Shown: positions 2,820 through 26,342, counted from the first letter of the stretch. The stretch: DNA of 32,000 nt from Erysipelotrichaceae bacterium MTC7 (GCA_001695645.1 LVZN01000005.1:1-32000), one strand, 5' to 3'. Notes: a model not told the origin generated them from the sequence alone. Numbers and translations: made by a program.

Positions 2820-5219
2820 ATGATATTAGATTTTACAAAAGAAACTTTTATGGAGGAATATGCCAATAAAATGATCGAACTCTATGGAGTGAGCGTTGAA
2901 GAGGCACACATCACGGAAAAGTATCTCGTATTAGGGGAAGTGATTCGTGAGTACATTAGTAACTCATGGAAAGAAAGTAAAGAAGCAAACCGTTTGTACC
3001 AAAAGAAAGAAGTATATTACTTCTCGATGGAATTTTTAATGGGTCGTTTATTCACAAATAACTTAATGAATTTAGGGATATACGACGCGGTTAAAGATGG
3101 ATTAGAAGCCTATGGAATTGATATCAATACGGTAGAAGAATTAGAAAGTGATGCTGGACTTGGAAATGGTGGTCTTGGAAGATTGGCTGCTTGTTTCTTA
3201 GATTCGATTGCATCGACACACTATATTGGACATGGAAACTGTATTCGTTATGAATATGGATTCTTTAAACAATTAATTCACGACAACAAACAAGTAGAAG
3301 TACCGGATTTATGGTTGAAGCTTGGAAACATTTGGGAAGTAAAAAAACCAAAACATACCGTAAAAGTGCGTTTTGGTGGAACCGTTCGACAAAGTGTTGA
3401 CCACAATGGAAAAGTCAAAGTCGACTTGGAAGATGCGTATGTGGTAAATGCTGTACCTTATGATGTACCGGTGGTTGGGTATGATACCAAATTAACCAAC
3501 ACGTTGCGTTTATGGTCAGCTGAACCATCAGAAGAAACATTAGAACGAGGACATGAAGACTATATTCAACAAGTACGTTCCATTTGTAATAGTTTGTATC
3601 CAGATGACTCAACAGAAGAAGGGAAAATGTTACGAATTCGTCAACAATACTTCTTTGTCAGTGCAGGATTGCATACGATTATCCGCAACCATTTAAAGAA
3701 CCATCCAAATTTGGATAGTTTACCAGATAAGGTTGCAGTACAATTAAACGATACACACCCCGTGTTAGCCATTCCTGAATTGATGCGTCTACTTTTAGAT
3801 GATTACAATTATGAATGGGATCAAGCATGGGATATTGTGACACGTACGATGGCCTATACAAATCACACGGTGTTGAGTGAAGCGTTGGAACGCTGGCCAA
3901 TGGAATACATTCGAAAATTATTACCAAGAGTCTACATGATCATTGAAGAAATTGAGCGTCGTTGGACGTACGATTTATCACATCGATATGGAAAGCCACA
4001 ATTGGTCGATTCTTGTCGCATCTTAAAAGATGGACAAGTGCATATGGCACATCTTGCCATTGTTGGATCTATGAGTATTAATGGAGTTGCAGCACTACAT
4101 TCACAGATTTTAAAAGATGACGTGTTTAAAAACTTCTATGAAGTATTCCCAGAAAAATTCAATAATAAAACCAATGGAGTTACACATCGTCGTTGGTTGA
4201 TGTATTCCAATCCAGAACTTACAAGGTTGCTGGATGAAATCATTGGTACATCATGGAAATTGCAACCAAGTGATTTATCTAAACTTAACGAGTATGTCGT
4301 TGACGCAGAAATTCAAGAAAGTTTCCTTCGTGTCAAAAAACGCAGAAAAGAAATTCTTGCAAAATACATCAAAGACGTTTGCCATGTTGAAGTGGATGTA
4401 AATTCAATATTTGATGTGCAAGCAAAACGATTACACGCGTATAAACGACAATTGATGAATGTACTACACATTATGTATTTATATAACAAGTTAAAAGAAG
4501 ATAAAGACTTTACGATGTATCCACGTACATTTATCTTTGCGGCAAAAGCGGCTCCATCCTATGTGTTTGCCAAGAAAGTGATTGAACTTATCAATAACTT
4601 AGCTGAAAAAGTAAATGGGGATCCAGATGTATCGCGTTATATGAAAGTGGTCTTTATTCCAAACTATGGAGTCAGCATTGCTGAAATCTTAATGAATGCT
4701 GCAGATGTAAGTGAACAAATTTCAACTGCTGGTAAAGAGGCAAGTGGAACTGGAAATGTGAAGTTCATGATGAATGGAGCCATTACCTTAGGAACTTTAG
4801 ATGGAGCAAACGTGGAAATTGTGGAACGTGTTGGACATGAATACGCTGAAATCTTTGGCTTAACATCGGAACAAGTCAATCACTTAAAGTTTGAGAACTC
4901 ATACGATGTTTGGCAAGTGTATCACAACGATCCAAACATTAAAAAAGTGATGGAACAATTGTTGGATGCAAATTATTTTGCCAATGGATCAACCTATCGT
5001 GAAATCTTTGATGAAGTGTTAAATAAAAAAGATGAATATCTTGTCTTAAAAGATTTTTGGAGTTATCATGAAGGGCAATTACGGGTGGAAGCACGTTACA
5101 AGGATCGCTCAGCATGGGCCAAGATGTGTTTGATTAATATTGCAAACTCGGGTTACTTCTCTAGTGATCGCACCATCGAAGAATATGCAAATGATATTTG
5201 GCATATTGAAAAATACTAA
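2820..5219 (+). CDS. glgP: Glycogen/maltodextrin phosphorylase
   Basis: GT35 signature with the PLP-lysine region EASGTGNVKFMMNGA, plus LGNGGLGRLAACFLDS. ATG 2820 follows the glgB stop (2801-2803) by 16 nt. The ORF-track TTG 2796 would overlap glgB. Confidence 0.93.
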   Translation: MILDFTKETFMEEYANKMIELYGVSVEEAHITEKYLVLGEVIREYISNSWKESKEANRLYQKKEVYYFSMEFLMGRLFTNNLMNLGIYDAVKDGLEAYGIDINTVEELESDAGLGNGGLGRLAACFLDSIASTHYIGHGNCIRYEYGFFKQLIHDNKQVEVPDLWLKLGNIWEVKKPKHTVKVRFGGTVRQSVDHNGKVKVDLEDAYVVNAVPYDVPVVGYDTKLTNTLRLWSAEPSEETLERGHEDYIQQVRSICNSLYPDDSTEEGKMLRIRQQYFFVSAGLHTIIRNHLKNHPNLDSLPDKVAVQLNDTHPVLAIPELMRLLLDDYNYEWDQAWDIVTRTMAYTNHTVLSEALERWPMEYIRKLLPRVYMIIEEIERRWTYDLSHRYGKPQLVDSCRILKDGQVHMAHLAIVGSMSINGVAALHSQILKDDVFKNFYEVFPEKFNNKTNGVTHRRWLMYSNPELTRLLDEIIGTSWKLQPSDLSKLNEYVVDAEIQESFLRVKKRRKEILAKYIKDVCHVEVDVNSIFDVQAKRLHAYKRQLMNVLHIMYLYNKLKEDKDFTMYPRTFIFAAKAAPSYVFAKKVIELINNLAEKVNGDPDVSRYMKVVFIPNYGVSIAEILMNAADVSEQISTAGKEASGTGNVKFMMNGAITLGTLDGANVEIVERVGHEYAEIFGLTSEQVNHLKFENSYDVWQVYHNDPNIKKVMEQLLDANYFANGSTYREIFDEVLNKKDEYLVLKDFWSYHEGQLRVEARYKDRSAWAKMCLINIANSGYFSSDRTIEEYANDIWHIEKY

Positions 5220-7143: not shown

Positions 7144-7784
7144 TGGAATATAGTGCGATTATCGTAGCAGCGGGTAAAGGACAACGGACCGGTCTTGCAT
7201 ACAACAAAGTGTTTCATAAACTTGATGGTCAGGCGATTATCAACTATTCAGTTGATGTTTTTGCCTCAGATGAAGATTGTAAACAGATTATTATTGTGAT
7301 TGCCGAACATGAACAAGAATACTTTACAGCAACGGTTCATGCACATAAGGTCGAATATGCAATTGGTGGTGCGACACGACAAGAAAGTGTGGCAAATGGT
7401 TTACAAAAAGTGAATCAAGATCACGTCATGATTCACGATGGTGCACGACCATTTATTGAGCAATCATTGTTGGATCAAATTAAAGAGACGCTGGATGAAT
7501 ACGATGCTTGTTTACCGATGGTCCCTGTAACAGATACGATCAAACAGGTGGATGCAGAAGGATTTGTTGTACAAACACCAAAACGTGAAGACTATATGGC
7601 AGCCCAAACGCCACAAGCTTTTAGCACAGGACTTATCAAAGATTGCCACCTACTTGCAAAACAAGATGGATTTGTGGGTAGCGATGATGCACAACTAGTA
7701 GAAATATACTGTGCGTGTCCAATTAAAGTAATCTTTGGTTCATATCAAAATAGAAAAATAACAACAACCGAGGATGTCAAGTAA
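7143..7784 (+). CDS. ispD: 2-C-methyl-D-erythritol 4-phosphate cytidylyltransferase
   Basis: N-terminal IIVAAGKGQRTG motif, HDGARPF and AQTPQAF motifs; length 213 aa. Confidence 0.9.
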   Translation: MEYSAIIVAAGKGQRTGLAYNKVFHKLDGQAIINYSVDVFASDEDCKQIIIVIAEHEQEYFTATVHAHKVEYAIGGATRQESVANGLQKVNQDHVMIHDGARPFIEQSLLDQIKETLDEYDACLPMVPVTDTIKQVDAEGFVVQTPKREDYMAAQTPQAFSTGLIKDCHLLAKQDGFVGSDDAQLVEIYCACPIKVIFGSYQNRKITTTEDVK

Positions 7785-9137: not shown

Positions 9138-10949
9138 ATGAAAAGAAGAAAGAGAAAGGATTTTAAGTATTCCAATATTCCTAAAATTGTATCCATATTT
9201 GTGATAATTTTAATGGCATTCAGTAGTATGGTGCCAAGAGTATTGTTGGATGTGGAAGAAGAAGATGTTCAATTCAATAATGTTACAACTGAAGAAAAAG
9301 TAAGCGTGACTCGGACAAGCGAGGATAATCAACCACTGGTTCACCTACAAGGTGAAACGCTCCTTGATGATGTTTATGAAATCGAAGTTGCAGCCAAGAG
9401 TACGGGGTTGGAATACCGACCCAAACCAAAGTTTAATGTAGTTTTTGTACTCGATAACTCTGGTAGTATGCAAAGGAGAATTGACTCGCAAACCGATGCT
9501 ATTAAGGGTCAAAGACGACTTGATTACTTGATAAATGATGTAAATACCTTTGCTAAAAAGATACTTGGTTATCAGGAATCAACAGTAAGCGCAGTTAACT
9601 TTTACAATTCAGGGAAGTCAGATGTCATATTCTCGGGTGCAACAACACCAAAACAAGTCGAAGCTGCAATGGTGGAAGGTACTGGAAAGCTCGTTACATT
9701 AGGAGGGACGAATATTTCTGCTGGAATAATCCAAGCAGAAAATGTACTTGATTCTTTAAAAACTTCGCAAACGAATGCTTTTGTTGGATACCACAACGTT
9801 GTGGTAATGATGACAGATGGTCAAATCAATAGTCCACAATATACGTACCCAGAATTAGATAGTTTGCAAAGTTTGGTTAATGCATATAGTCAACGTCTAA
9901 GTGTTTATGGAGTTGCATACTCTACACCAAATATGGATAATGATGGAACGTTCTCAAGATTTAGTAACTTATGGACTTCTGGAAATGCTGGCTATGGACG
10001 AGGATATATGTATGAAGTAAATGCACAAAATAAAGAAAATATGTTTGATGAAATCTATCAACGTATCTCGAAAGTGCAAACAGACGAAATTATGATTGAT
10101 GTTACATTACCAGAAGGACTTGACTTTGTAGAGGAAACTGAGCAACAACCATACACTGTGGATGGAAATACGTTAAAAGCAATAATTTCATATCCTAAAG
10201 ACGGTGTAGAACATTCGTTTAAATACAAAGTGCGAATCAATCAAGAAAAAGTATATGAAATCTACGATAAGAATGTAGAGCGAGAAGAGATTTTCGCGAA
10301 GATTGACCATAATTTCGAGTACAAATTCAGATTACTGAATAAGGAAATTGTGAATGAAAGTGAAAGTTCACAGGAAATATTTGATTATCGTAAGACGAAT
10401 GTTGTACTTGATCTACCAATCTATCGACTCACAACACATGCAATCAACGGAACGATTGGACATGCGCATGGCGTACTTGGTACGGTTGTTGAAAACGCAG
10501 GGTCGAAAGATATTCCTGTCTACGTTGGACGTGGTGCAAGTGGTACATCAGGGTACTGGGTGGATGGTTATGGACCAGATCCAGCAATTGAAGGATTGGA
10601 ATTTGTTCGTTCAACAATTGAACGACCATTCCAAGTTGATGGAAATGAAATGTTTACTACGGACCTTGGATCTCATGAAGTAGAAGGTATCTTTACAGAT
10701 ACACATATTGAAGTTGAGTGGAAAAAGAAAGAAACACCACCGCCAACACCAATACCTGATCCTAAGCCAGATCCAACACCTGACCCAACACCAGATCCAG
10801 TTGAACTACCAAGTATAGCGGTAGTGGAACTACCAAGTGTTGCAACAGGTATGGGCGCACCAGATGTTACGCTACTACCTATGGTGTGGATGGCTGGCGG
10901 GACTGCTGCAGTCATCGTATTAAAGAAATGGAGAGATAAAAAGAAATAG
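9138..10949 (+). CDS. Secreted VWA-domain surface protein with a C-terminal sorting-like signal (LPSVATG + TM + KKWRDKKK)
   Basis: RBS GGAGGAGG precedes ATG 9138; the ORF-track ATG 9111 lacks properly spaced SD. N-terminal basic/hydrophobic signal anchor. MIDAS motif DNSGS at 9453. Pro-rich PDPKPDPTPDPTPDP linker. Hydrophobic segment and basic tail at the extreme C terminus. Confidence 0.85.
   Translation: MKRRKRKDFKYSNIPKIVSIFVIILMAFSSMVPRVLLDVEEEDVQFNNVTTEEKVSVTRTSEDNQPLVHLQGETLLDDVYEIEVAAKSTGLEYRPKPKFNVVFVLDNSGSMQRRIDSQTDAIKGQRRLDYLINDVNTFAKKILGYQESTVSAVNFYNSGKSDVIFSGATTPKQVEAAMVEGTGKLVTLGGTNISAGIIQAENVLDSLKTSQTNAFVGYHNVVVMMTDGQINSPQYTYPELDSLQSLVNAYSQRLSVYGVAYSTPNMDNDGTFSRFSNLWTSGNAGYGRGYMYEVNAQNKENMFDEIYQRISKVQTDEIMIDVTLPEGLDFVEETEQQPYTVDGNTLKAIISYPKDGVEHSFKYKVRINQEKVYEIYDKNVEREEIFAKIDHNFEYKFRLLNKEIVNESESSQEIFDYRKTNVVLDLPIYRLTTHAINGTIGHAHGVLGTVVENAGSKDIPVYVGRGASGTSGYWVDGYGPDPAIEGLEFVRSTIERPFQVDGNEMFTTDLGSHEVEGIFTDTHIEVEWKKKETPPPTPIPDPKPDPTPDPTPDPVELPSIAVVELPSVATGMGAPDVTLLPMVWMAGGTAAVIVLKKWRDKKK
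10758..10799 (+). repeat. Short in-frame tandem repeat encoding the (PD-P-T/K) linker
   Basis: gatcctaagcca/gatccaacacct/gacccaacacca/gatcca, a 12-nt period encoding DPKPDPTPDPTPDP. Confidence 0.6.
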
Positions 10950-13821: not shown

Positions 13822-15660
13822 ATGGCGAAAATTCAAAGATTAGATCCACACTTAACGAATATGATCGCCGCTGGAGAAGTAGTTGAACGACCAAGTGGTG
13901 TCGTTAAGGAATTGGTGGAAAATTCCATCGATGCGCATGCTTCAACCATTCAAGTACATGTACGACAAGGTGGTATTGAAGAAATGATGATTGTTGATGA
14001 TGGTGATGGAATGAGTGCACAAGATGCAACGTTATCCTTTGAACGTCATGCAACAAGTAAAATCAAAGATGTAAAAGACCTTTGGCGTATCTCGACCATG
14101 GGGTTTCGTGGCGAGGCATTACCATCGATTTCTTCCGTTGCCCATGTGGAGTTAAAAACCAATGATGGAACGGATTCGACACTCGTTGAAATCGCCTATG
14201 GAAAAACCATTCATGCCAAACCCATTGGAACACCAAAAGGTACACAAATCTCGGTTAAAAACTTATTTCAACGCACGCCAGCACGCTTTAAACACTTACG
14301 TAGTGCAAGCTATGAGTTTTCACTTGTAAGTGATGTCATACAAAAGTTTGCGCTTGCTTACCCAAGCATTTCCTTTAGCTTGTATCACGATGATAAACGC
14401 ATCTTTCAAAGCAATGGAAATGGCAATATGCAAGAAGTGATGTATCAAATCTATGGTCGTGAAGTGGCTAAAGCTGCCATTGCTGTTAAAGGAAAAGATA
14501 CAGATTATCAAATTGATGGTTACGTCGTACAACCGTTTCAAACAAGAGCAACCAAGTATTACATGTTGTTTTTTATCAACAATCGTATGATTCGTTCTTA
14601 TCGACTACAAAAAGCGATTATGGATGCATATGGTCCATACATTCCAAGTGGACGTTATCCAATTGTCGCTTTGCACATCACGATGGATCCACAATTGGTT
14701 GATGTTAATGTTCACCCAAGCAAATGGGAAGTACGCTTTTCAAAAGAGAAACAATTGGAATATGTAATTAAGGAAACCATCCAAGAAGCATTACGTGAAA
14801 AACTAGAAGTCAATCGTGTCGTAAAACAGGAAAAGCTAGAAATTGAAGCACCAACATTTAACTTTGAAGAAGTAAAAAAGGAAACACCTTCTGTCATCTA
14901 CAAGCAACAAACAGAACCAGAAATACAAGTTGCAGAACCTACAGTCAGATACCAAGAGGTAGTACAGCAAACACCTGTACCTGAAGTTGCTGGTTCAGTT
15001 ACAGTTGAGAAAGATGGGATTGTAAAACCAAGTGTTCAAGTTTCACAAAAGGTTGAACCGGCGAAAGTAAGTAATCCGTCTTTGCCAAAGATGCGTGCAC
15101 TTGCGCAATTGCACAAAGCCTATATTCTTGCAGAAGGTGACGATGGTTTGTATATCATTGACCAACACGCTGCACAAGAGCGTTACAATTTTGAAGTAAT
15201 TAAACAAAAAGTACAAGCAGGAATTAAAGACCAACAAGATCTTTTGGTACCTATCACCCTCACGTCAAACTTACAAGCAGTGAGTAGTGTGGATCAACTC
15301 AATCACACGCTAGAACCTCTAGGTATTCAATTTGAAGTGTTTGGCGACAACAGTTTTGTTGTACGTAGTTTGCCAATTTGGCTTGTACATACAAATGAGC
15401 AAGCATTCTTACAGGATATGGTGGACTTTTATATTAAAAATGAAGAAGTGGATATTGAAGAACTGCGAAAGCATACACTAGCCACAATGGCTTGTCATTC
15501 GTCGATTCGATTTAATCGCTCCTTAAGTTTAGCTGAGATGCAACAAGTGATTACCGACTTGGAGCATTGTGAGCAACCGTTCCATTGTCCCCATGGACGA
15601 CCAACCTTCTTAAAATACACGCTTAAAGATTTAGAGAAAAGTTTTTTACGGGTGAAATAA
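13822..15660 (+). CDS. mutL: DNA mismatch repair endonuclease MutL
   Basis: GHKL ATPase motifs (ELVENSIDA, DDGDGM). C-terminal endonuclease motifs DQHAAQERYNFE, ACHSSIRFN and CPHGRP. RBS AAAGGAG is present. Confidence 0.95.
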   Translation: MAKIQRLDPHLTNMIAAGEVVERPSGVVKELVENSIDAHASTIQVHVRQGGIEEMMIVDDGDGMSAQDATLSFERHATSKIKDVKDLWRISTMGFRGEALPSISSVAHVELKTNDGTDSTLVEIAYGKTIHAKPIGTPKGTQISVKNLFQRTPARFKHLRSASYEFSLVSDVIQKFALAYPSISFSLYHDDKRIFQSNGNGNMQEVMYQIYGREVAKAAIAVKGKDTDYQIDGYVVQPFQTRATKYYMLFFINNRMIRSYRLQKAIMDAYGPYIPSGRYPIVALHITMDPQLVDVNVHPSKWEVRFSKEKQLEYVIKETIQEALREKLEVNRVVKQEKLEIEAPTFNFEEVKKETPSVIYKQQTEPEIQVAEPTVRYQEVVQQTPVPEVAGSVTVEKDGIVKPSVQVSQKVEPAKVSNPSLPKMRALAQLHKAYILAEGDDGLYIIDQHAAQERYNFEVIKQKVQAGIKDQQDLLVPITLTSNLQAVSSVDQLNHTLEPLGIQFEVFGDNSFVVRSLPIWLVHTNEQAFLQDMVDFYIKNEEVDIEELRKHTLATMACHSSIRFNRSLSLAEMQQVITDLEHCEQPFHCPHGRPTFLKYTLKDLEKSFLRVK

Positions 15661-16649: not shown

Positions 16650-16864
16650 GTGGCATTGGATGTAATTAATGTTTGATTTGCGTGCATTAATTAAGATGAA
16701 TAGATGTATGGGAATTCATCTTAAACTTCAGTGTGGGTGTGAAGTAAGTCGTTTAATTATTAGAGAATACTTACGGGGTAATAATTGAATACTTTTAATG
16801 CAGTTCATTTGTGTGGTACATGGACTGTTTTTTTGTTCTTGTACACATGTGTAAGGAGAACCCT
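16650..16864 (+). promoter_or_regulatory. Long structured 5' leader (A) ending in an intrinsic terminator just before the RBS
   Basis: Hairpins: TAATTAATG/CATTAATTA (16663-16693), AAGATGAAT/ATTCATCTT (16693-16722), ACTTCA/TGAAGT (16725-16745), AATTATT/AATAATT (16755-16786), then the terminator at 16801-16834. The 3' ~75 nt are paralogous to 19335-19417. Confidence 0.55.
16801..16834 (+). terminator. Leader terminator/attenuator A
   Basis: CAGTTCA (16801-16807) pairs with TGGACTG (16821-16827). The apex TGT (16810-16812) pairs with ACA (16818-16820), followed by T7. It lies 30 nt upstream of ATG 16865. Confidence 0.7.
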
Positions 16865-18613
16865 ATGAAAAAAATTAAAATATTTATGGTATTGTCATTG
16901 ATGCTTACCGTGTTTGTAGGATTCATGAATCATGCAACTAACGTAAAAGCAGCAACCCCTGTGATTTGTGAATCAACAGACAATGGAATGTCAATGAAAG
17001 TTGGTGATAAGCTATCTGAGCATATTCCCGACATTGCGTTTGCAAGGTTTGTAATAAAGAATGTGTTGGGTGGTAGTGCTGTAGATCAAACACCCGAGAC
17101 GTATATACTTACCGAACAGGATCTAACAAAGATTTCAAATTATAAAAATATGAATATAACTGCAGACAGTGTGGATGAAAGTTCAAATTATCATGTACAG
17201 TCACTTGAAGGAATCCATAACTTTGAGAATCTTCAAACGTTTCGAATAAGTCAGTCGAAAACGCCATCTGATAGTCGGCTGACATCGCTACCAATGGAAC
17301 TATCACGTTTAAATAAATCATTGATAAGCTTGACTGTTTACAGTAGTGGATTAAAAGAAGTTCCAGATGTAGTGTCTTGTTTAACGAACTTAACAACGTT
17401 AAACTTTGGATACAACCAAATTACAGAAGGCGTAGATAACGTGTTACCATTACTGCAGCTAAAGACCCTGATATTACTTGGTAACTACATTAGTGAAGTG
17501 CCTGCTGGTATTGGGGCATTAACTCAGTTGGATCAGTTATCATTTGCATTTAATCGACTGACAGAAATACCTGAAGAAGTCTACACACTGCCAAATGTGC
17601 GGATCCTTGCATTTGCAACCAATCAAATCACACATATAAATGGCGCTGAAAATATAGTATCTCCAAATCTAACGCAATTCACTCTTGCGTTCAATCAAAT
17701 TGCAGATTTTTCGCCAATCCTTGGGTTAGGTACAGGTGGACAGTTTGCAAACCAGTATCGTATAGCCAAACCAATCATGGTGGAAGAGGGAACAACCGTT
17801 GTTGATGTTGATTTAAAGGATTATGTATTCAATCACATGGGCGCAAGAATTGAGGGAAATGCAGATACAGTATTATATTTTCCTGATATGGTAACGGAAT
17901 TTACGTTCTATGATGTAAATCAATCATATTACTCACATTACAACACACCACGCATTGTGAATAGTGAACGCGAAAATGCGATTACGATTGATCGGAAAGA
18001 AAAGGAAAGTGTTATTAAGCTAGAAATCAAAGAAAATGAACAATTTGGAAGACACGTGATGTTTCGACTTGAAGCAACTGGCGAAAAGACAGATGATTTG
18101 CATAACTGGAGTTCATTTGGTGTTTATAATAACGACATTACGTACATTGTTCCAATCGAAGAATACGTCATTCCAACAACTGGTTATATCGTTCATTACT
18201 GGAAAGATGCAATAGGTACAGGCATAGATCATGAAAACTATCTTGGAACACATCGTAGTGAAGAAATTTATATGAATGGTGATGAAGTTGAACTAAATGA
18301 TGAACTAAAGAATTTATTCCTAAATAAAGATCAGTATTTTGTATTGGATCGTGTTAGTGCAGAGAAACTAACGATTGATATTGAGATACTAGATAACAAT
18401 GTTTTCCATGTCGTATATCGAAGAGACTTACCAGCGATTGCACCTGATCCAGAAGTGAAAGACGAACCAAAAGTAGAACCAAAGCAAGAAATTGTAGGTT
18501 TACCAAGTATTGCCACATATGACACGGTAGATGTATTGTTCTACTTGCTTTTAATCAGTGCCATGTCTGTAAGTATTCTTGTTCTTGTAAAAGCGAAAGG
18601 ACAAAAACGATAA
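16865..18613 (+). CDS. Secreted leucine-rich-repeat (internalin-like) surface protein with a C-terminal sorting-like signal (LPSIATY + TM + KAKGQKR)
   Basis: RBS AAGGAGA precedes ATG 16865; the ORF-track GTG 16811 lies inside the leader terminator. Signal peptide MKKIKIFMVLSLMLTVFVGFMNHATNVKA/A. About 7 LRRs of the LxxLxLxxNxIxEVP type. The C-terminal beta-rich module ends in NNVFHVVYRRD, like the repeats of the 1136-aa protein. Confidence 0.85.
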   Translation: MKKIKIFMVLSLMLTVFVGFMNHATNVKAATPVICESTDNGMSMKVGDKLSEHIPDIAFARFVIKNVLGGSAVDQTPETYILTEQDLTKISNYKNMNITADSVDESSNYHVQSLEGIHNFENLQTFRISQSKTPSDSRLTSLPMELSRLNKSLISLTVYSSGLKEVPDVVSCLTNLTTLNFGYNQITEGVDNVLPLLQLKTLILLGNYISEVPAGIGALTQLDQLSFAFNRLTEIPEEVYTLPNVRILAFATNQITHINGAENIVSPNLTQFTLAFNQIADFSPILGLGTGGQFANQYRIAKPIMVEEGTTVVDVDLKDYVFNHMGARIEGNADTVLYFPDMVTEFTFYDVNQSYYSHYNTPRIVNSERENAITIDRKEKESVIKLEIKENEQFGRHVMFRLEATGEKTDDLHNWSSFGVYNNDITYIVPIEEYVIPTTGYIVHYWKDAIGTGIDHENYLGTHRSEEIYMNGDEVELNDELKNLFLNKDQYFVLDRVSAEKLTIDIEILDNNVFHVVYRRDLPAIAPDPEVKDEPKVEPKQEIVGLPSIATYDTVDVLFYLLLISAMSVSILVLVKAKGQKR

Positions 18614-18806: not shown

Positions 18807-18835
18807 TTTACAAGTAAAGTTGACTCTTTTATGAT
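18807..18835 (+). promoter_or_regulatory. Sigma-A-type promoter of module B
   Basis: TTTACA (18807-18812), 17-nt spacer, TATGAT (18830-18835). Confidence 0.45.
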
Positions 18836-18841
18836 AAAAGT

Positions 18842-19033
18842 GTGGATATCATAAAGTATTCATTTGTGTGTGTGTGTTAATGGAGATTCATTTTTCTCGG
18901 AGGGCAATTTCGATAGTAAAAAGGTTTACATGAACACAAAAGAAATTGAAAAACCTCTACAAGAATGTGGCGATATGACACCATGTATCCTTACTCAGAC
19001 AGTTCGTAATTGTGCATTATGAACTGTTTTTTT
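18842..19033 (+). ncRNA. Stand-alone leader-like transcript (module B): candidate sRNA/decoy RNA or small-peptide mRNA
   Basis: A promoter and a strong terminator bracket about 190 nt. The sequence is paralogous to the 5' leader of the downstream adhesin gene, but no RBS or gene follows it. The only ORF is 30 codons (18930-19022). Confidence 0.4.
19000..19033 (+). terminator. Intrinsic terminator of module B
   Basis: CAGTTCGTAAT pairs with ATTATGAACTG (11 bp, one G-U), loop TGTGC, T7. Confidence 0.85.
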
Positions 19034-19138: not shown

Positions 19139-19167
19139 TTTACTAAAGTAGAAACATGCTTTATGAT
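19139..19167 (+). promoter_or_regulatory. Sigma-A-type promoter of module C (1136-aa adhesin gene)
   Basis: TTTACT (19139-19144), 17-nt spacer, TATGAT (19162-19167). It is positionally homologous to the module B promoter. Confidence 0.45.
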
Positions 19168-19173
19168 AAAAAT

Positions 19174-19417
19174 ATAGAATATTAAAAATATTCATGTGTG
19201 TGTGCGTTAATAGGGAAATTACAATTATTGGCGGGTATAGAAGGAAGACTATCCCAGGCTTTAATCACTTGAACTGAAGTGATTTTACCAATAGATATCA
19301 ACAGGGATATCCTTTTGTGGACCCAATATTTCTTATCTTTATTAATGCAGTTCATTAGTGTAGTACTTGGACTGCTTTTTTGTATTCCAAGTACCTGTGT
19401 GTTAAGGAGGAAAGAAT
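19174..19417 (+). promoter_or_regulatory. Long 5' leader (C) ending in an intrinsic terminator just before the RBS
   Basis: It contains the hairpins AATCACTT-gaactg-AAGTGATT (19263-19284) and GATATC-aacagg-GATATC (19294-19311), the terminator at 19348-19381, then AAGGAGG and ATG 19418. Confidence 0.55.
19348..19381 (+). terminator. Leader terminator/attenuator C
   Basis: CAGTTCA (19348-19354) pairs with TGGACTG (19368-19374). The apex AGT (19357-19359) pairs with ACT (19365-19367), followed by C then T6. It lies 36 nt upstream of ATG 19418. Confidence 0.7.
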
Positions 19418-22400
19418 ATGAAAGTAAAGGAAAGCACCAGGAAGATATTGATAGGTTTATTAACATTTGTGCTTTTGATTGGAGTGGTTTTTGTAGGAAC
19501 TACACAAAATGCTAGGGCAAATACAGAACGGCCAGTAAAAGGGGATCTTGGGCAATTAAACTCAACAGCTATCTATGGGGAGAAAGACCGTGGAACTCCT
19601 GTAAGCGGAGAACTTGAGTTTACAAATTTTTCAGAAGATGGAAATGTAACAGCAACAAAAAAAATTACTAAACTAGAAAATGGTAAATTCGAAATAACGT
19701 TTACCACAAAAACAAAAAACATTGTAAAATTAACAGAGAAGCAAATCAATGTAGTTATTGTTTTTGATAAAAGTGGAAGTATGAAAAATGAAGTAAAGTA
19801 TTGTAAACAGTATAATCTAAATGATTGCAGAAATAACAAAAATAAAAACGATGGATATACAAAGGAAGTCATTACTAAAGCAAAGTGGGATAATGCAAAA
19901 GCGGGTGTAAACTCACTGGTTGACAATTTGATAAAAACATACGGAAAAGATGTATCAATTCAGTTTGTTACATTTGACAATGGCGCTACAATAAAAACAG
20001 AATCCCCAATATACCAAGAAAATGGTGAAGCTTCAAACAGCACAGATTTGATATATGAAAATGGGAATTACTCTTTTGATAGTGAATTATTTGGAAAAGC
20101 AAATGGTTGGACAAACATCAAAGACGGATTTGATAAAGCAAATACTGCACTTTCGAATGTGACAAACAAGTTTACTGAGGATGAACAAAATATTGTGTTC
20201 CTATTAGGAGATGGTGAACCAAGATTGAGTAATGATCCCGATGCAGCGACTATAGCACATAATGAGGCAGTTACTGCATCAAGCATTGTGAAGAAAAATG
20301 CTACGGTATATACTTTAGGATATGATGTAGAGGTTAACGGGACTGCAGAAAGCAATTTGAAGTCATATGCAACACTAAAGGATAACAAACCGTTATATTG
20401 GGCAGGCAGCATTGATAATATTAAAACGGTAATTCAGTCAATTGTGCGCGCAATAAATGAAGAAGTGACATCAATTGAAGGCATGATTCATGATATGATT
20501 CCTTCATATTTTACAGTAAGTAGTGTCAAAAATGAGTACATAACAAAAACAGCAGATGGTACGGCTGTTAAGATTCCAATGACTGGTGGTGAAGCAGATA
20601 AAGATGGCTATGTTACAGCGACAACAACATTTACAGTTACATTGGATGAATCAAAAGTTTTAGAACCAGGTTGGTATGCAATTAATGATCATTCCAATGG
20701 TCAAGTAAAATTTGTCTATGGAGAAAGTGCATCTGGTTCAAATGACGATGAAGTTGTCATTAAAGCTGCTATTGATGAAGAAAATGAAGGGAATCCGGCT
20801 GTTTATGCATATCCGGAACAAGGCTATATTTTGCGTCGTACATTTGTTGAAAGTGATGGCATAAAAACACCATCGAGACCGGATGTTCAATCTACCACTA
20901 AGTTTATTACTGGACAATCACTCGATAATCAGACGAAGAACATTGCATTTGATGCGAGTCATTTTGAAAATGAAAGCGAATTGTTAGCTGATATTGATGC
21001 AACAGATAATAATGGAGTTGTGATTGGATACTGGAAACACAACCAACAAAATCCTGTTTCGACTACAACAATTACACCAATTATAGAGAACAACGTAGTT
21101 GAAGAAGAATTTGTTTTTGTACGAGAAAAACAAAAATATATCATTAACCATCATATCGTCGATGGAAACGAAGATGAAATTGCTTTAACACAACCTGGCT
21201 TAGGTGAGGACGTATACAAAGAGTTGAATGCGCCTGTCATGATTGAAACAGCAGGTCATGAGTTCCTTGGTGATTCAAGTGCTCCAAATTTTGTTTATCG
21301 CGACCATAAAATTGGTGGTGTGTCTTCAACTGCAAGCACATTCAATATCCAAGCCGATGATAATGCCAACGTAGTAGATGTATATTATGTTCCTCACAAA
21401 TATAAAGATGAGGCACCTTATGTGATTAACTATGTTGATATAACAGATGGTGAAGAAAATGCCACTGCGATTCCTGGAAGCACATCGGAAACAGGGCAAT
21501 TAGGTTATGATCAATCAATTGACTTGAATACTAAACAACATACATTTGCTGGATATTACTATGTTGATACAATCACAACGGATGGAGAAGGTGCAACAAC
21601 GTTGACAGCAATTCGACCTGAAGAAGGCGATGACTCAGCACTAAGTGTAGCGAGTATTCGTTATAAACGTGTGCAAGGAACGTATGCAATTCAAGAACAT
21701 TACCAAGAATTAGATGGTAGTTACTCAGATGAACCAATGAAAGTCAGTGGGTTGTTGAATGCTGGTACAGTAGTGCGTGTCGTGCAAGAAGTAAGTGATC
21801 CGATTGGAGGAGTTATAACTGAGACGGTTACAAATACAAAAGCACAAACACATGAGTTAAATACGGATCTCACAAATCCAGCACTTGGAGACAAGCTAAC
21901 TATTCCAAACACAGGAACTAGTGAACTTGGACAAGTAGTATTCCATGTATATTACAAATTGAAAATGGCACCAGTAGCAGTCGAATATCACTATGATGAT
22001 GGAACAGCTAAGTCAAGACAAGACTTACCAGCTGTGTATGTTACTGGGTCAGCTAATTTAACTCAAGAACATATTGATGCAGGTAACTTGAATGGCTTAT
22101 ATACAACTGATAGCACGCCAGAAACTGTAGCTAATGTAACGAATGATGGTGTAGTATTCCATGTATACTACACAAGAAAAACAGCACCAGTTGTAGTGCG
22201 TTACTATCACGATACTTTCGATAATGATGGATATTTGGGTGAGGACATTATTGCTACGTATAAAGTTGGCGAGTCTGTAAATGCAGCGGATGTAATCACT
22301 GCTAATATGATGGACAAATATCGTCCAGTGAAATATCTAGGAGGAGCATTTATTGGCGAAACGACAGTGGTTGTTAGCGAAGATCCAACCGGAGCATTCA

Positions 22401-22828
22401 ACATTATCTATATGCCAGCACCAGTTGGTAAAGCAACTTATAAGGTAATGTTCTGGTTAGATGAAATTGGAACATCAACTACTAGTGAAAAGTTCATCAA
22501 TCAATACGAAAGCAGTGAATTGTTTGATGAAGGAACACAAATTGATGCTAAAGATATTGATACTGAGCGTTTCCTAACAACTGGACTAATGTTCAAATCT
22601 ATCGATAAAGAATCTTTAGAAATTGTTGCTGATGGGGAAAATGTATTCCATGTTATTTACATAAGTAATGCACCATCAAAAGCACCAGAAACTACAATCC
22701 TTGGACTTCCAGCGATTGCTACAGGTGATGTAAATAATGCGATTGCATACTTAACATTATTACTGTTAGCTGTTAGTGCAGTTGTAGGAACATACAAAGT
22801 AAGAAAAAATAGAAAAAATGAAGCATGA
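19418..22828 (+). CDS. Large secreted adhesin: N-terminal VWA domain + central region + six MucBP-like repeats + sorting-like signal (LPAIATG + TM + KVRKNRKNEA)
   Basis: RBS AAGGAGG. Signal peptide with NARA/NT cleavage. MIDAS DKSGS at 19766. The repeats each end in a V(V/F)(D/H)VYY-type strand. The C terminus is tripartite. Confidence 0.88.
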   Translation: MKVKESTRKILIGLLTFVLLIGVVFVGTTQNARANTERPVKGDLGQLNSTAIYGEKDRGTPVSGELEFTNFSEDGNVTATKKITKLENGKFEITFTTKTKNIVKLTEKQINVVIVFDKSGSMKNEVKYCKQYNLNDCRNNKNKNDGYTKEVITKAKWDNAKAGVNSLVDNLIKTYGKDVSIQFVTFDNGATIKTESPIYQENGEASNSTDLIYENGNYSFDSELFGKANGWTNIKDGFDKANTALSNVTNKFTEDEQNIVFLLGDGEPRLSNDPDAATIAHNEAVTASSIVKKNATVYTLGYDVEVNGTAESNLKSYATLKDNKPLYWAGSIDNIKTVIQSIVRAINEEVTSIEGMIHDMIPSYFTVSSVKNEYITKTADGTAVKIPMTGGEADKDGYVTATTTFTVTLDESKVLEPGWYAINDHSNGQVKFVYGESASGSNDDEVVIKAAIDEENEGNPAVYAYPEQGYILRRTFVESDGIKTPSRPDVQSTTKFITGQSLDNQTKNIAFDASHFENESELLADIDATDNNGVVIGYWKHNQQNPVSTTTITPIIENNVVEEEFVFVREKQKYIINHHIVDGNEDEIALTQPGLGEDVYKELNAPVMIETAGHEFLGDSSAPNFVYRDHKIGGVSSTASTFNIQADDNANVVDVYYVPHKYKDEAPYVINYVDITDGEENATAIPGSTSETGQLGYDQSIDLNTKQHTFAGYYYVDTITTDGEGATTLTAIRPEEGDDSALSVASIRYKRVQGTYAIQEHYQELDGSYSDEPMKVSGLLNAGTVVRVVQEVSDPIGGVITETVTNTKAQTHELNTDLTNPALGDKLTIPNTGTSELGQVVFHVYYKLKMAPVAVEYHYDDGTAKSRQDLPAVYVTGSANLTQEHIDAGNLNGLYTTDSTPETVANVTNDGVVFHVYYTRKTAPVVVRYYHDTFDNDGYLGEDIIATYKVGESVNAADVITANMMDKYRPVKYLGGAFIGETTVVVSEDPTGAFNIIYMPAPVGKATYKVMFWLDEIGTSTTSEKFINQYESSELFDEGTQIDAKDIDTERFLTTGLMFKSIDKESLEIVADGENVFHVIYISNAPSKAPETTILGLPAIATGDVNNAIAYLTLLLLAVSAVVGTYKVRKNRKNEA
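21134..22663 (+). repeat. Six tandem ~70-90-aa protein repeats (MucBP-like) within the adhesin gene
   Basis: Repeat boundaries (aa): 573-657 (...VVDVYYV), 667-750, 755-846 (...VVFHVYYK), 851-918 (...VVFHVYYT), 923-999 (...AFNIIYMP), 1005-1082 (...NVFHVIYIS). Each repeat starts with a Y-x-[IV]-x-[YH] strand. Confidence 0.6.
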
Positions 22829-24937: not shown

Positions 24938-25461
24938 TGCAAAGCGAACGGCTGTACCTTAGAAAACTTACACTAGATGATGCAAAGGAATTGTTTGTTT
25001 TGGCAAGTGATCCAGATGTTGGGATTCATGCAGGATGGAAACCACATGCATCAATTGAAGAAACAGAAGAAGTATTAGATACGATTTTGATTAACGATAA
25101 CAACTTTGGAATTTTCTTGAAAGAGGGAGATGTGCTTATTGGATGTGTGGGAATCCAAAAAGATTTACATCGAACCGCTTTTATGAAAACCATTGGTTAT
25201 TGGATTGGAAAAGCATATTGGGGTCATGGTTATGTAGTAGAAGCTTCAAGAATCATCTTGGATCAACTATTTTTTGAAGAACATGAACCATATGTTAGTA
25301 TCAATCACTACGCAACCAATGATCGAAGTCGACGTGTAATTGAAAAGCTAGGGTTTAAAAAAGAGGGAATGCTCGTACAAGGTGCAAAAGATACCATGGG
25401 TAATGTGCATGATATTGTACTGTACGTGTTAAGTGAAAATGATTATAAGGAGACAAGATGA
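24925..25461 (+). CDS. GNAT-family N-acetyltransferase (RimJ/RimL-like)
   Basis: [17 protein letters not shown] terminus, [13 protein letters not shown], and [17 protein letters not shown]. The start is either ATG 24925 or the TAATG-coupled ATG 24937. Confidence 0.85.
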
Positions 25462-26342
25462 ATAAACTGAAAAAAATAACTGCAGTTGCTACTTTAGGGT
25501 TGGTAATGCTAACAGGATGTGGTTCAAGTGCAAAAGACAAAGCGTTAGAAACACTTGATTTGGTAGGAAAAGCAGAACAAGCGAGTTCATATAAAACGGA
25601 TGTAAATTACACGATGAACTTAAATGCCTCTTACCAAGAACAAACGTTGGAAATGGCATTGAAGATGGATTTTGCCATCGATGTTCTTGTTGATGCGAAT
25701 AAAATGCATTCCCAAGGAAACATGGATATCAACTTTATGGGAAACCAACAAAAAGTTGCACTTGATATGTATGGATACAGTGACGGAGATGCTTATGTAT
25801 TAGCTACAAATGATGGTTCATCTGATGTTTGGAGAACACAAACGGTGGAACAGTTACCAGATGCAACCATCCAAAAGGAATCTATTAAAACCCTTCGTGA
25901 GATGAAAATGTTGCGAGGGATGGATGGAGATAAAGTAAAAGGTAAAAAAACCAACAAAGTTGTTGGTGAAATTGAATATGAGACATTAGCAGACATGATA
26001 CAAATCTTAGGTACGGGTGAACAAATGGTTGGAATTGAGGACTATAAGGGAATGACATTCCCAGTAACCTACCAATTCTATGCAGATGATAACCGTCTTG
26101 CATCTGTTACAGTTGATATGAAATCAGCGATGAAAGAAGCGATGATAAAATCAATAGGAACAGAAGAGGCGGAAATTAATATAGATGCAGCAGAGTTTAC
26201 AATGATTTGCTACGACTATAATGAAGTCAAAGATTTTACCATTCCGGAAATCAAAACAGAAGATTCAACAGATGCTAGTGATGATGAAGCGTTTGTATTG
26301 CCAACGTTCTATCTTGGAGAAAATGAAAAAGTATTTGCCTAG
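25458..26342 (+). CDS. Putative lipoprotein
   Basis: Signal peptide with lipobox LTGC ([24 protein letters not shown]). RBS AAGGAGA is present, and the ATGA overlaps the upstream gene. Function unknown. Confidence 0.8.
   Translation: MNKLKKITAVATLGLVMLTGCGSSAKDKALETLDLVGKAEQASSYKTDVNYTMNLNASYQEQTLEMALKMDFAIDVLVDANKMHSQGNMDINFMGNQQKVALDMYGYSDGDAYVLATNDGSSDVWRTQTVEQLPDATIQKESIKTLREMKMLRGMDGDKVKGKKTNKVVGEIEYETLADMIQILGTGEQMVGIEDYKGMTFPVTYQFYADDNRLASVTVDMKSAMKEAMIKSIGTEEAEINIDAAEFTMICYDYNEVKDFTIPEIKTEDSTDASDDEAFVLPTFYLGENEKVFA

Follow-up and report, generated by a model that had tools for sequence, protein, structure and literature searches.

Sortase signals serve to predict the surface proteomes of Gram-positive bacteria, and sortases serve as protein-ligation tools. 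In the LPXTG signal of class A sortases, which is described by the models TIGR01167 (LPXTG_anchor) and PF00746, a single residue separates Pro from the Thr at which the protein is cut, and Gly is the usual leaving-group residue. Class B sortases read other motifs: SrtB of Clostridioides difficile recognizes (S/P)PXTG and has CD3392 among its substrates (tail sequence from PMC4155245), the Streptococcus pyogenes class B sortase Spy0129 uses EVPTG/QVPTG (PMC3019223), and for Bacillus anthracis SrtB both the residue that precedes NPKTG and an Asp at P2' are needed (PMC11987632). NCBIfam also includes an 'LPKTxAVK-specific' class B sortase (NF040525), which is a precedent for extended class B signals. 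Here we describe a seven-residue C-terminal signal, LP[SA][IV]AT[GY], that is shared by three surface proteins (P1, P2 and P3) encoded in a 32,000-nucleotide stretch of Erysipelotrichaceae bacterium MTC7 (GCA_001695645.1 LVZN01000005.1:1-32000), the whole of which we refer to as the window.

The heptapeptide is undescribed, conserved and lineage-specific, a finding of modest novelty and not a new system. We consider it probable that P1-P3 carry a lineage-specific sortase-type signal, equivalent to LPXTG with two extra residues, and that the gene of the sortase that would read it lies at another place in the genome.

Motif and C-terminal architecture

An initial annotation of the window reported the non-canonical signal at the C termini of all three proteins, and our translations agree. 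The proteins end in VELPSVATG-MGAPDVTLLPMVWMAGGTAAVIVL-KKWRDKKK (P1), IVGLPSIATY-DTVDVLFYLLLISAMSVSILVLV-KAKGQKR (P2) and ILGLPAIATG-DVNNAIAYLTLLLLAVSAVVGTY-KVRKNRKNEA (P3). The motif coordinates given there for P1 and P3 are exact, and those for P2 (18499-18519) are one base off the actual 18500-18520. The three genes and their parts are as follows.

9138..10949, + strand: P1, secreted VWA-domain surface protein, 603 amino acids (aa) from MKRRKRK (open reading frame, ORF; Pfam VWA_2 and VWA; gene call P0012)
9111, + strand: start of the longest P1 ORF
10806..10820, + strand: P1 upstream half-copy LPSIA, in the context ELPSIAV-VELPSVATG (motif scan)
10830..10850, + strand: P1 sorting motif LPSVATG (translation, motif scan)
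10851..10922, + strand: P1 spacer and hydrophobic segment MGAPDVTLLPMVWMAGGTAAVIVL (translation)
10923..10946, + strand: P1 basic tail KKWRDKKK (translation)
16865..18613, + strand: P2, secreted leucine-rich-repeat (LRR) surface protein, 582 aa from MKKIKIF (ORF; LRR_4, LRR_8 and LRR_14; gene call P0002)
16811, + strand: start of the longest P2 ORF
18428..18442, + strand: P2 upstream half-copy LPAIA, closing the last domain (motif scan)
18500..18520, + strand: P2 sorting motif LPSIATY, with Tyr for Gly (motif scan)
18521..18589, + strand: P2 spacer and hydrophobic segment DTVDVLFYLLLISAMSVSILVLV (translation)
18590..18610, + strand: P2 basic tail KAKGQKR (translation)
19418..22828, + strand: P3, secreted adhesin-like protein, 1136 aa, with a VWA domain at the N terminus and beta-rich repeat domains (ORF, Pfam)
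19501..22683, + strand: P3 passenger region, in place of which 98%-identical strains have an unrelated-looking allele (blastn, BLASTP, boundary alignments)
22684..22828, + strand: P3 conserved 3' module (TTILG, sorting signal and stop), where nucleotide identity between strains resumes (alignments)
22706..22726, + strand: P3 sorting motif LPAIATG (translation, motif scan)
22727..22795, + strand: P3 spacer and hydrophobic segment DVNNAIAYLTLLLLAVSAVVGTY (translation)
22796..22825, + strand: P3 basic tail KVRKNRKNEA (translation)

The architecture of a sortase substrate, which had also been claimed for these proteins, is present: signal peptide, motif, hydrophobic segment and a tail rich in Lys and Arg (K/R). 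Read by eye, P1, P2 and P3 each open like a signal peptide, with a basic n-region, a core of hydrophobic residues and a site of the AxA type. The motif starts 37-40 residues before the C terminus, inside the 17-45 range of sortase signals, and is followed by 23-24 spacer and hydrophobic residues and then by a K/R-rich tail of 7-10 residues. In the six-frame translation of the window, LP[SA][IV]AT[GY] was observed three times against 0.0005 expected from composition, and it did not occur in 300 shuffles. The shorter string LP[SA][IV]A was observed five times against 0.11 expected, and all five copies lie within the C-terminal regions of P1-P3. The two copies that are not part of a full motif are the half-copies in P1 (ELPSIAV) and P2 (DLPAIAP), 8 and 24 codons 5' of it, respectively; that of P2 reads LPAVA in the 98%-identical strains. 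At the half-copy position relatives have xPS[IV][AD]xP, which closes the last domain.

We compared ten aligned tails with known sorting signals. A regular-expression scan of the LP[SA][IV]AT[GY] tails found no LPXTG, NPXTN/G, LPXTA, LAXTG, (S/P)PXTG or QVPTGV, so that the motif, as first proposed, fits no published pentapeptide class. The further claim that it could be placed in no described family stood in part. None of the NCBIfam and Pfam sorting-domain models covers LP[SA][IV]AT[GY] itself, but TIGR01167 and PF00746 match six of the ten tails, the alignment always beginning at Thr, and the tail of one relative, P0007, passes TIGR01167 (19.3 bits versus a cutoff of 15.9) and falls just short on PF00746 (19.7 versus 20). 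Because the LPXTG-anchor models align from Thr and P0007 passes, we regard the signal as a derivative of the LPXTG type and not as a separate family. A local hidden Markov model (HMM) of the tails aligned with the LPSTG of M6 protein with a two-residue gap exactly at [IV]A. Judged from sequence, the signal is best described as the LPXTG type with two extra conserved residues ([I/V]-A) before Thr.

Like LPXTG proteins of class A, those of the window combine a signal peptide, an L-P...T-G motif with a following acidic residue, a hydrophobic segment and a K/R tail, and the distance of the motif from the C terminus is alike. They differ in having three residues between Pro and Thr in place of one, with [I/V]-A themselves conserved, in that Tyr may replace Gly, and in that the Leu-Pro part is left unaligned by both models. 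The likeness to C. difficile SrtB signals lies in a non-LPXTG motif, a T-G-D continuation, and a similar spacer and transmembrane segment (TM). The TGD, helix and K/R portion of the local HMM aligns with CD3392 at 19.8 bits (TGDSTNLMAF...GTY...KRRK in CD3392 versus TGDTTNVMAY...GTYKFRK in the clade), a paralogue within the clade carries APSTGD, and a distant homologue lies beside a class B sortase that has C. difficile SrtB among its PDB matches. Unlike in (S/P)PXTG, Ile or Val and not Pro stands two residues before Thr, and Pro is displaced by two positions.

Two further class B systems share particular features with the signal. Reading [S/A]-[I/V]-A-T-G as a pentapeptide gives Val/Ile at the second position, as in the S. 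pyogenes pilin signals (E/Q/V)(V/P)PTG; here, in contrast, there is no Pro before Thr, a conserved Leu-Pro lies upstream, and a pilus locus, SipA-like chaperone and major pilin are absent. In the extended class B signals (B. anthracis DNPKTGDE; NF040525) more than five residues are read and the P2' Asp is present, as it is conserved here, whereas the sequences differ from LP[SA][IV]AT[GY]. No tail matched the NCBIfam class B signal models (NPQTN and QVPTGV classes, and others) at E up to 10; Rumino_NPXTG matched one tail at E = 0.039.

Conservation and distribution

We searched a profile of the three window tails, with no word index, against 1.84 billion representative proteins at E <= 1e-3. 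This search returned eight proteins only: P2, P3, one allele of P1 and five further large VWA proteins (P0004-P0008), all five of which end in (G)LP[SA]IATGD followed by a helix and a K/R tail. Cluster look-ups gave Breznakia blatticola, unclassified Breznakia and Erysipelotrichaceae bacterium MTC7 as sources, Breznakia being a genus within the Erysipelotrichaceae, and among the 1.84 billion representatives there was no match outside this clade. In their source annotations the matched proteins are a 'vWA domain-containing protein' or 'hypothetical protein', never an LPXTG protein. The window bacterium belongs to the Breznakia group, from the gut of insects or other animals, and the signal, as far as these sequence searches reach, is lineage-specific and confined to one small clade.

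A word-indexed search with the three tails gave six candidates and no match, short tails having too few common 5-mers; with full-length P3 it returned P3 alone, which reflects a limit of the method, since the profile search found relatives. In JGI metagenomes and IMG/VR, the tail pattern had 73 and 25 matches, respectively, and no relatives were among them. The window MutS has at most 58% identity to the species representatives returned, the best being Erysipelotrichaceae such as Longicatena, and at the syntenic position these MutS-based relatives have no comparable surface protein. A literature search found nothing relevant on the motif strings, on Erysipelotrichaceae sortase signals or on Breznakia sortases. 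Separately, at a MutS-neighbouring locus in a metagenome-assembled genome of a rabbit-gut member of the Bacilli (L025), a + strand ORF that ends near 2075 encodes a protein of 691 aa whose C terminus is EQVPTGD, a helix and KKKK, which is a QVPTG-type (class B) sorting signal.

P2 and P3 lie in an island between miaA and ispF, and a second species with about 80% nucleotide identity (L092) has four genes in the same island. Three of these encode an LRR protein ending in LPSVATYD, a 661-aa VWA protein ending in LPSVATYD and a 1211-aa VWA protein ending in LPAIATGD. The fourth (14132-15565) encodes a 477-aa secreted protein without a Pfam match, whose tail is of the same family and has a KAPSTGD motif of canonical length, KAPSTGDTTSVSSLY, a TM and KKRK. 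This gene is missing from the window, where ispF lies directly 3' of P3. A second insertion site for members of the family is between tsf and pyrH, amid housekeeping genes (L082 10001-13507; L088 10001-13129).

The motif is kept in at least 12 distinct proteins from at least three species-level lineages; its conservation in orthologues and paralogues and its restriction to a lineage are both evident from the profile search and from contig tails. The ten aligned tails are 31-66% identical, and their invariant columns are the motif L, P, A and T together with one linker Pro. The residue after the heptapeptide L-P-[S/A]-[I/V]-A-T-[G/Y] is usually Asp. The P1 tail has essentially nothing in common with the others beyond the motif, of which it retains L, P, A and T. 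Codons for the motif residues vary among tails: CTA, TTG, TTA, CTT and CTG for Leu, TCA or AGT (two codon families) for Ser, all four (GCA, GCT, GCC and GCG) for Ala, ACA and ACT for Thr, and TAT and TAC for Tyr. Because codons differ between tails, the motif is conserved at the protein level and not via gene conversion, which points to selection on the motif residues rather than on the DNA. The Tyr of LPSIATY is retained in the P2 orthologues of loci L083 and L085-L087, and LPSVATY was found in two more proteins (loci L092 and L081). Given that it recurs in three non-orthologous proteins of two species, the Tyr variant is maintained and not an accident.

The signal also marks the edge of an exchanged segment. 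In L083 and L085-L087, whose flanks are 98-99% identical to the window, the P3 site holds a different allele, P0004, of 1122 aa. The P3 and P0004 passengers are 27-42% identical in patches at the amino-acid level and show no similarity as DNA; the two proteins have in common only the beginning of the signal peptide and the 48 final codons, which run from TTILG to the end of the sorting signal. Identity stops inside the signal peptide and begins again exactly at TTILGLPAIATG, so that a swapped adhesin cassette is framed by signal peptide and sorting signal, suggesting strong diversifying selection or recombination. P0006 (from MTC7) and P0007 have the tail and the preceding linker in common, with passengers 23% identical and different signal peptides. 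They may be swapped alleles at the tsf-pyrH site, in which case P0006 may be the allele there in another genome.

The presumed sortase and alternative readings

In the scheme that we favour, P1-P3 would be Sec-exported as two VWA adhesins and one LRR protein, and each precursor, once exported, would be kept in the membrane by its hydrophobic segment and K/R tail. There a cysteine transpeptidase (sortase), itself membrane-bound and the product of a gene at another place in the genome, would cut after Thr and join the protein to peptidoglycan. This enzyme would most plausibly be class B-like, of the C. difficile SrtB type, reading residues beyond the pentapeptide. The signal also forms the constant 3' end of adhesin genes in which the passengers are swapped between strains.

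A word-indexed search with a full-length adhesin profile found one clear homologue outside the clade, P0014, with VWA and MucBP domains and a C terminus of ILPPQTGVDVNTNNPY, a helix and KKKVNE (motif ILPPQTG(V/M)). The P0014 gene overlaps, at its 5' end, the gene of a sortase of 244 aa, and the two form an operon-like pair (L090 9283-14416). On TIGR03064, a class B model with an equivalog cutoff of 153.75, this sortase reaches only 121 bits, and on NF040525 it reaches 63 bits (cutoff 200). All of its matches in the PDB are class B enzymes, from Listeria, C. difficile, B. anthracis, C. perfringens, S. aureus and S. pyogenes. When metagenomes were scanned with this sortase, a second operon-like pair was found, a class B sortase and a VWA/MucBP adhesin with an LPPQTG tail (L099 2385-6651), and besides it three unrelated SrtB genes. 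The class B sortase adjoins only the LPPQTG-tailed adhesins, P0014 and that of L099, and no LP[SA][IV]AT[GY] gene. In the clade itself, the APSTG-type tail in L092 suggests a sortase able to read xPxTG-type signals in these organisms. We note that the LPPQTG signal of the L090 and L099 pairs, readable as PPQTG, is itself not LPXTG and comes from an uncultured organism. Next to the tsf-pyrH adhesins is encoded an unannotated protein of 423 aa, which we weighed as the enzyme and set aside, since by eye it looks like an Mrp/NBP35-type ATPase fusion (GKGGVGKS).

A narrower proposal, which we put forward tentatively and hold to be somewhat less likely than its opposite, is that in the Breznakia clade a sortase reads the heptapeptide L-P-x-[I/V]-A-T, a new and extended specificity, and tolerates Tyr as the leaving-group residue. 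If so, the clade enzyme would be orthogonal to LPXTG sortases, and cutting of a ILGLPSIATGDTT peptide after Thr would be expected; within one cell it may also tell G-type, Y-type and APSTG-type substrates apart, for instance by directing each type to a destination of its own. A conserved signal of seven residues would illustrate the extent to which substrate recognition can drift and would flag a blind spot of LPXTG-based surface-protein prediction in gut Erysipelotrichaceae, and the enzyme, if found, would offer a possible orthogonal recognition sequence for sortase-mediated ligation. The signal is thus a lead to a sortase with extended specificity, within a narrow scope: one small clade, a cognate enzyme that is only presumed, and many variant sortase motifs already known.

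Several observations weigh against a sortase-read signal. That no sortase lies nearby had been stated for the window, and we found none there: none of the ORFs in the 32 kb contains a sortase domain or looks like any other sorting enzyme, and there is no sortase in the 10 kb past the window's 3' end in a 98%-identical strain. The clade loci L081-L089 and L092-L098 likewise have no sortase gene in the stretches retrieved, whole genomes being unscanned. That this organism has a sortase is an expectation from what is known of walled Bacillota, and the class B link is one distant homologue in a different organism (25% G+C versus 36%). The P1 and P2 tails have no match to TIGR01167 or PF00746, and the P3 tail is below both cutoffs (13.4 bits versus 15.9 and 15.0 versus 20, respectively). 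Compared with every characterised signal, Leu-Pro stands two residues farther from the Thr at the cut, and Tyr takes the usual leaving-group Gly position in a quarter to a third of the tails. On the local HMM the tail of InlA, a class A substrate, scores about equal to the class B substrate, so that the HMM favours neither class of enzyme.

The best-surviving alternative is that the proteins are anchored in the membrane, unprocessed, by the C-terminal helix, the motif being a relic left from an ancestral sortase signal, or a juxtamembrane stalk element, that is kept for structure or as a recombination anchor for passenger swapping. It would account for the lack of a sortase in any locus retrieved, for a motif that differs from all sortase motifs tested and in several proteins has Tyr where Gly is usual, and for a tail that is the exact boundary of allelic replacement, P3-type tail DNA being near-identical between alleles. 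We nevertheless judge it unlikely. A relic should decay, whereas this motif is invariant across the proteins and lineages counted above; P1 retains L, P, A and T though nothing else is common with other tails; and the synonymous codons, with even different Ser codon families, argue for selection on residues and not on DNA.

A reader other than a sortase, such as an exosortase, archaeosortase, rhombosortase, CPBP-type intramembrane protease or undescribed enzyme, seems to us very improbable. The motif is missing from all curated sortase-signal models, and the layout of motif, TM or helix and basic tail is common to the PEP-, PGF-, GlyGly- and PID-CTERM systems too, but no tail reaches the cutoff of the PEP-CTERM, PGF-CTERM, GlyGly-CTERM, Firmicu-CTERM and related models. 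The best, PID-CTERM, gives 20.9 bits versus 26, and PEP_CTERM gives E = 0.13 in two of ten tails, both matches covering helix and tail only. In those systems the signature abuts the helix, whereas here an 8-residue spacer beginning with TGD intervenes, as in sortase signals, and LPXTG anchors are the only consistent model matches. The initial annotation had allowed for a different sorting enzyme; we found no positive evidence for one, no candidate lies beside any of about ten substrate genes, and the only enzyme beside a homologous adhesin is the class B sortase. To our knowledge, no non-sortase system of these types is known in Erysipelotrichaceae.

VWA domains head many Gram-positive pilus tip adhesins. 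That P1-P3 belong to a pilus, as VWA adhesins of the tip that a pilin-specific class B or C sortase would polymerise rather than attach one by one to the wall, is scarcely credible even so. The genes are clustered (P2-P3; four genes in L092), and unusual motifs such as EVPTG/QVPTG are read by class B pilin sortases (PMC3019223), but the islands show neither a sortase of the pilin type nor a major pilin or a pilin motif. P1, the LRR protein and the tsf-pyrH copies lie dispersed, with housekeeping genes around them, and the P3-family profile matches generic VWA structures only in the PDB, not adhesins of the RrgA/SpaC type.

Upstream leader and neighbouring genes

A conserved leader of about 75 nucleotides (nt) lies just 5' of the start codons of the island surface-protein genes. 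Its copies are as follows.

16795-16860 and 19342-19415, window: leader copies
5064-5143, 7461-7541, 9913-10000 and 13964-14047, L092: leader copies
1886-1973, L081: leader copy

The leader contains a terminator-like hairpin, CAGTTCA...TGAACTG followed by a T-run, and an overlapping helix, GTACTTTGAA/TTCAAAGTAC, that spans the T-run and shows compensatory changes in 3 of 12 pairs. It may be an attenuator that co-regulates the adhesins. No Rfam family matches the leader, and it is not present 5' of P1 or of the tsf-pyrH copies. The cyclic di-GMP riboswitch that accompanies C. difficile sortase substrates was not found 5' of P3 in the Rfam search.

The 800-bp gap between P2 and P3 (18614-19417) contains a 61-nt direct repeat whose copies (18828-18888 and 19160-19220) are 70% identical; each overlaps a promoter-like site, and a terminator-like hairpin (18997-19029) lies between them. 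The gap may be the remnant of a gene that is still present between the LRR and large VWA genes in the L092 island.

The remaining genes of the window are housekeeping genes, among them glgB, glgP, msrAB, ispD, rpsF, ssb, mutS, mutL, miaA, ispF and gltX. A 294-aa lipoprotein with an LTGC lipobox (window 25458-26342), which has no Pfam match, is encoded beside a GNAT gene in all related strains.

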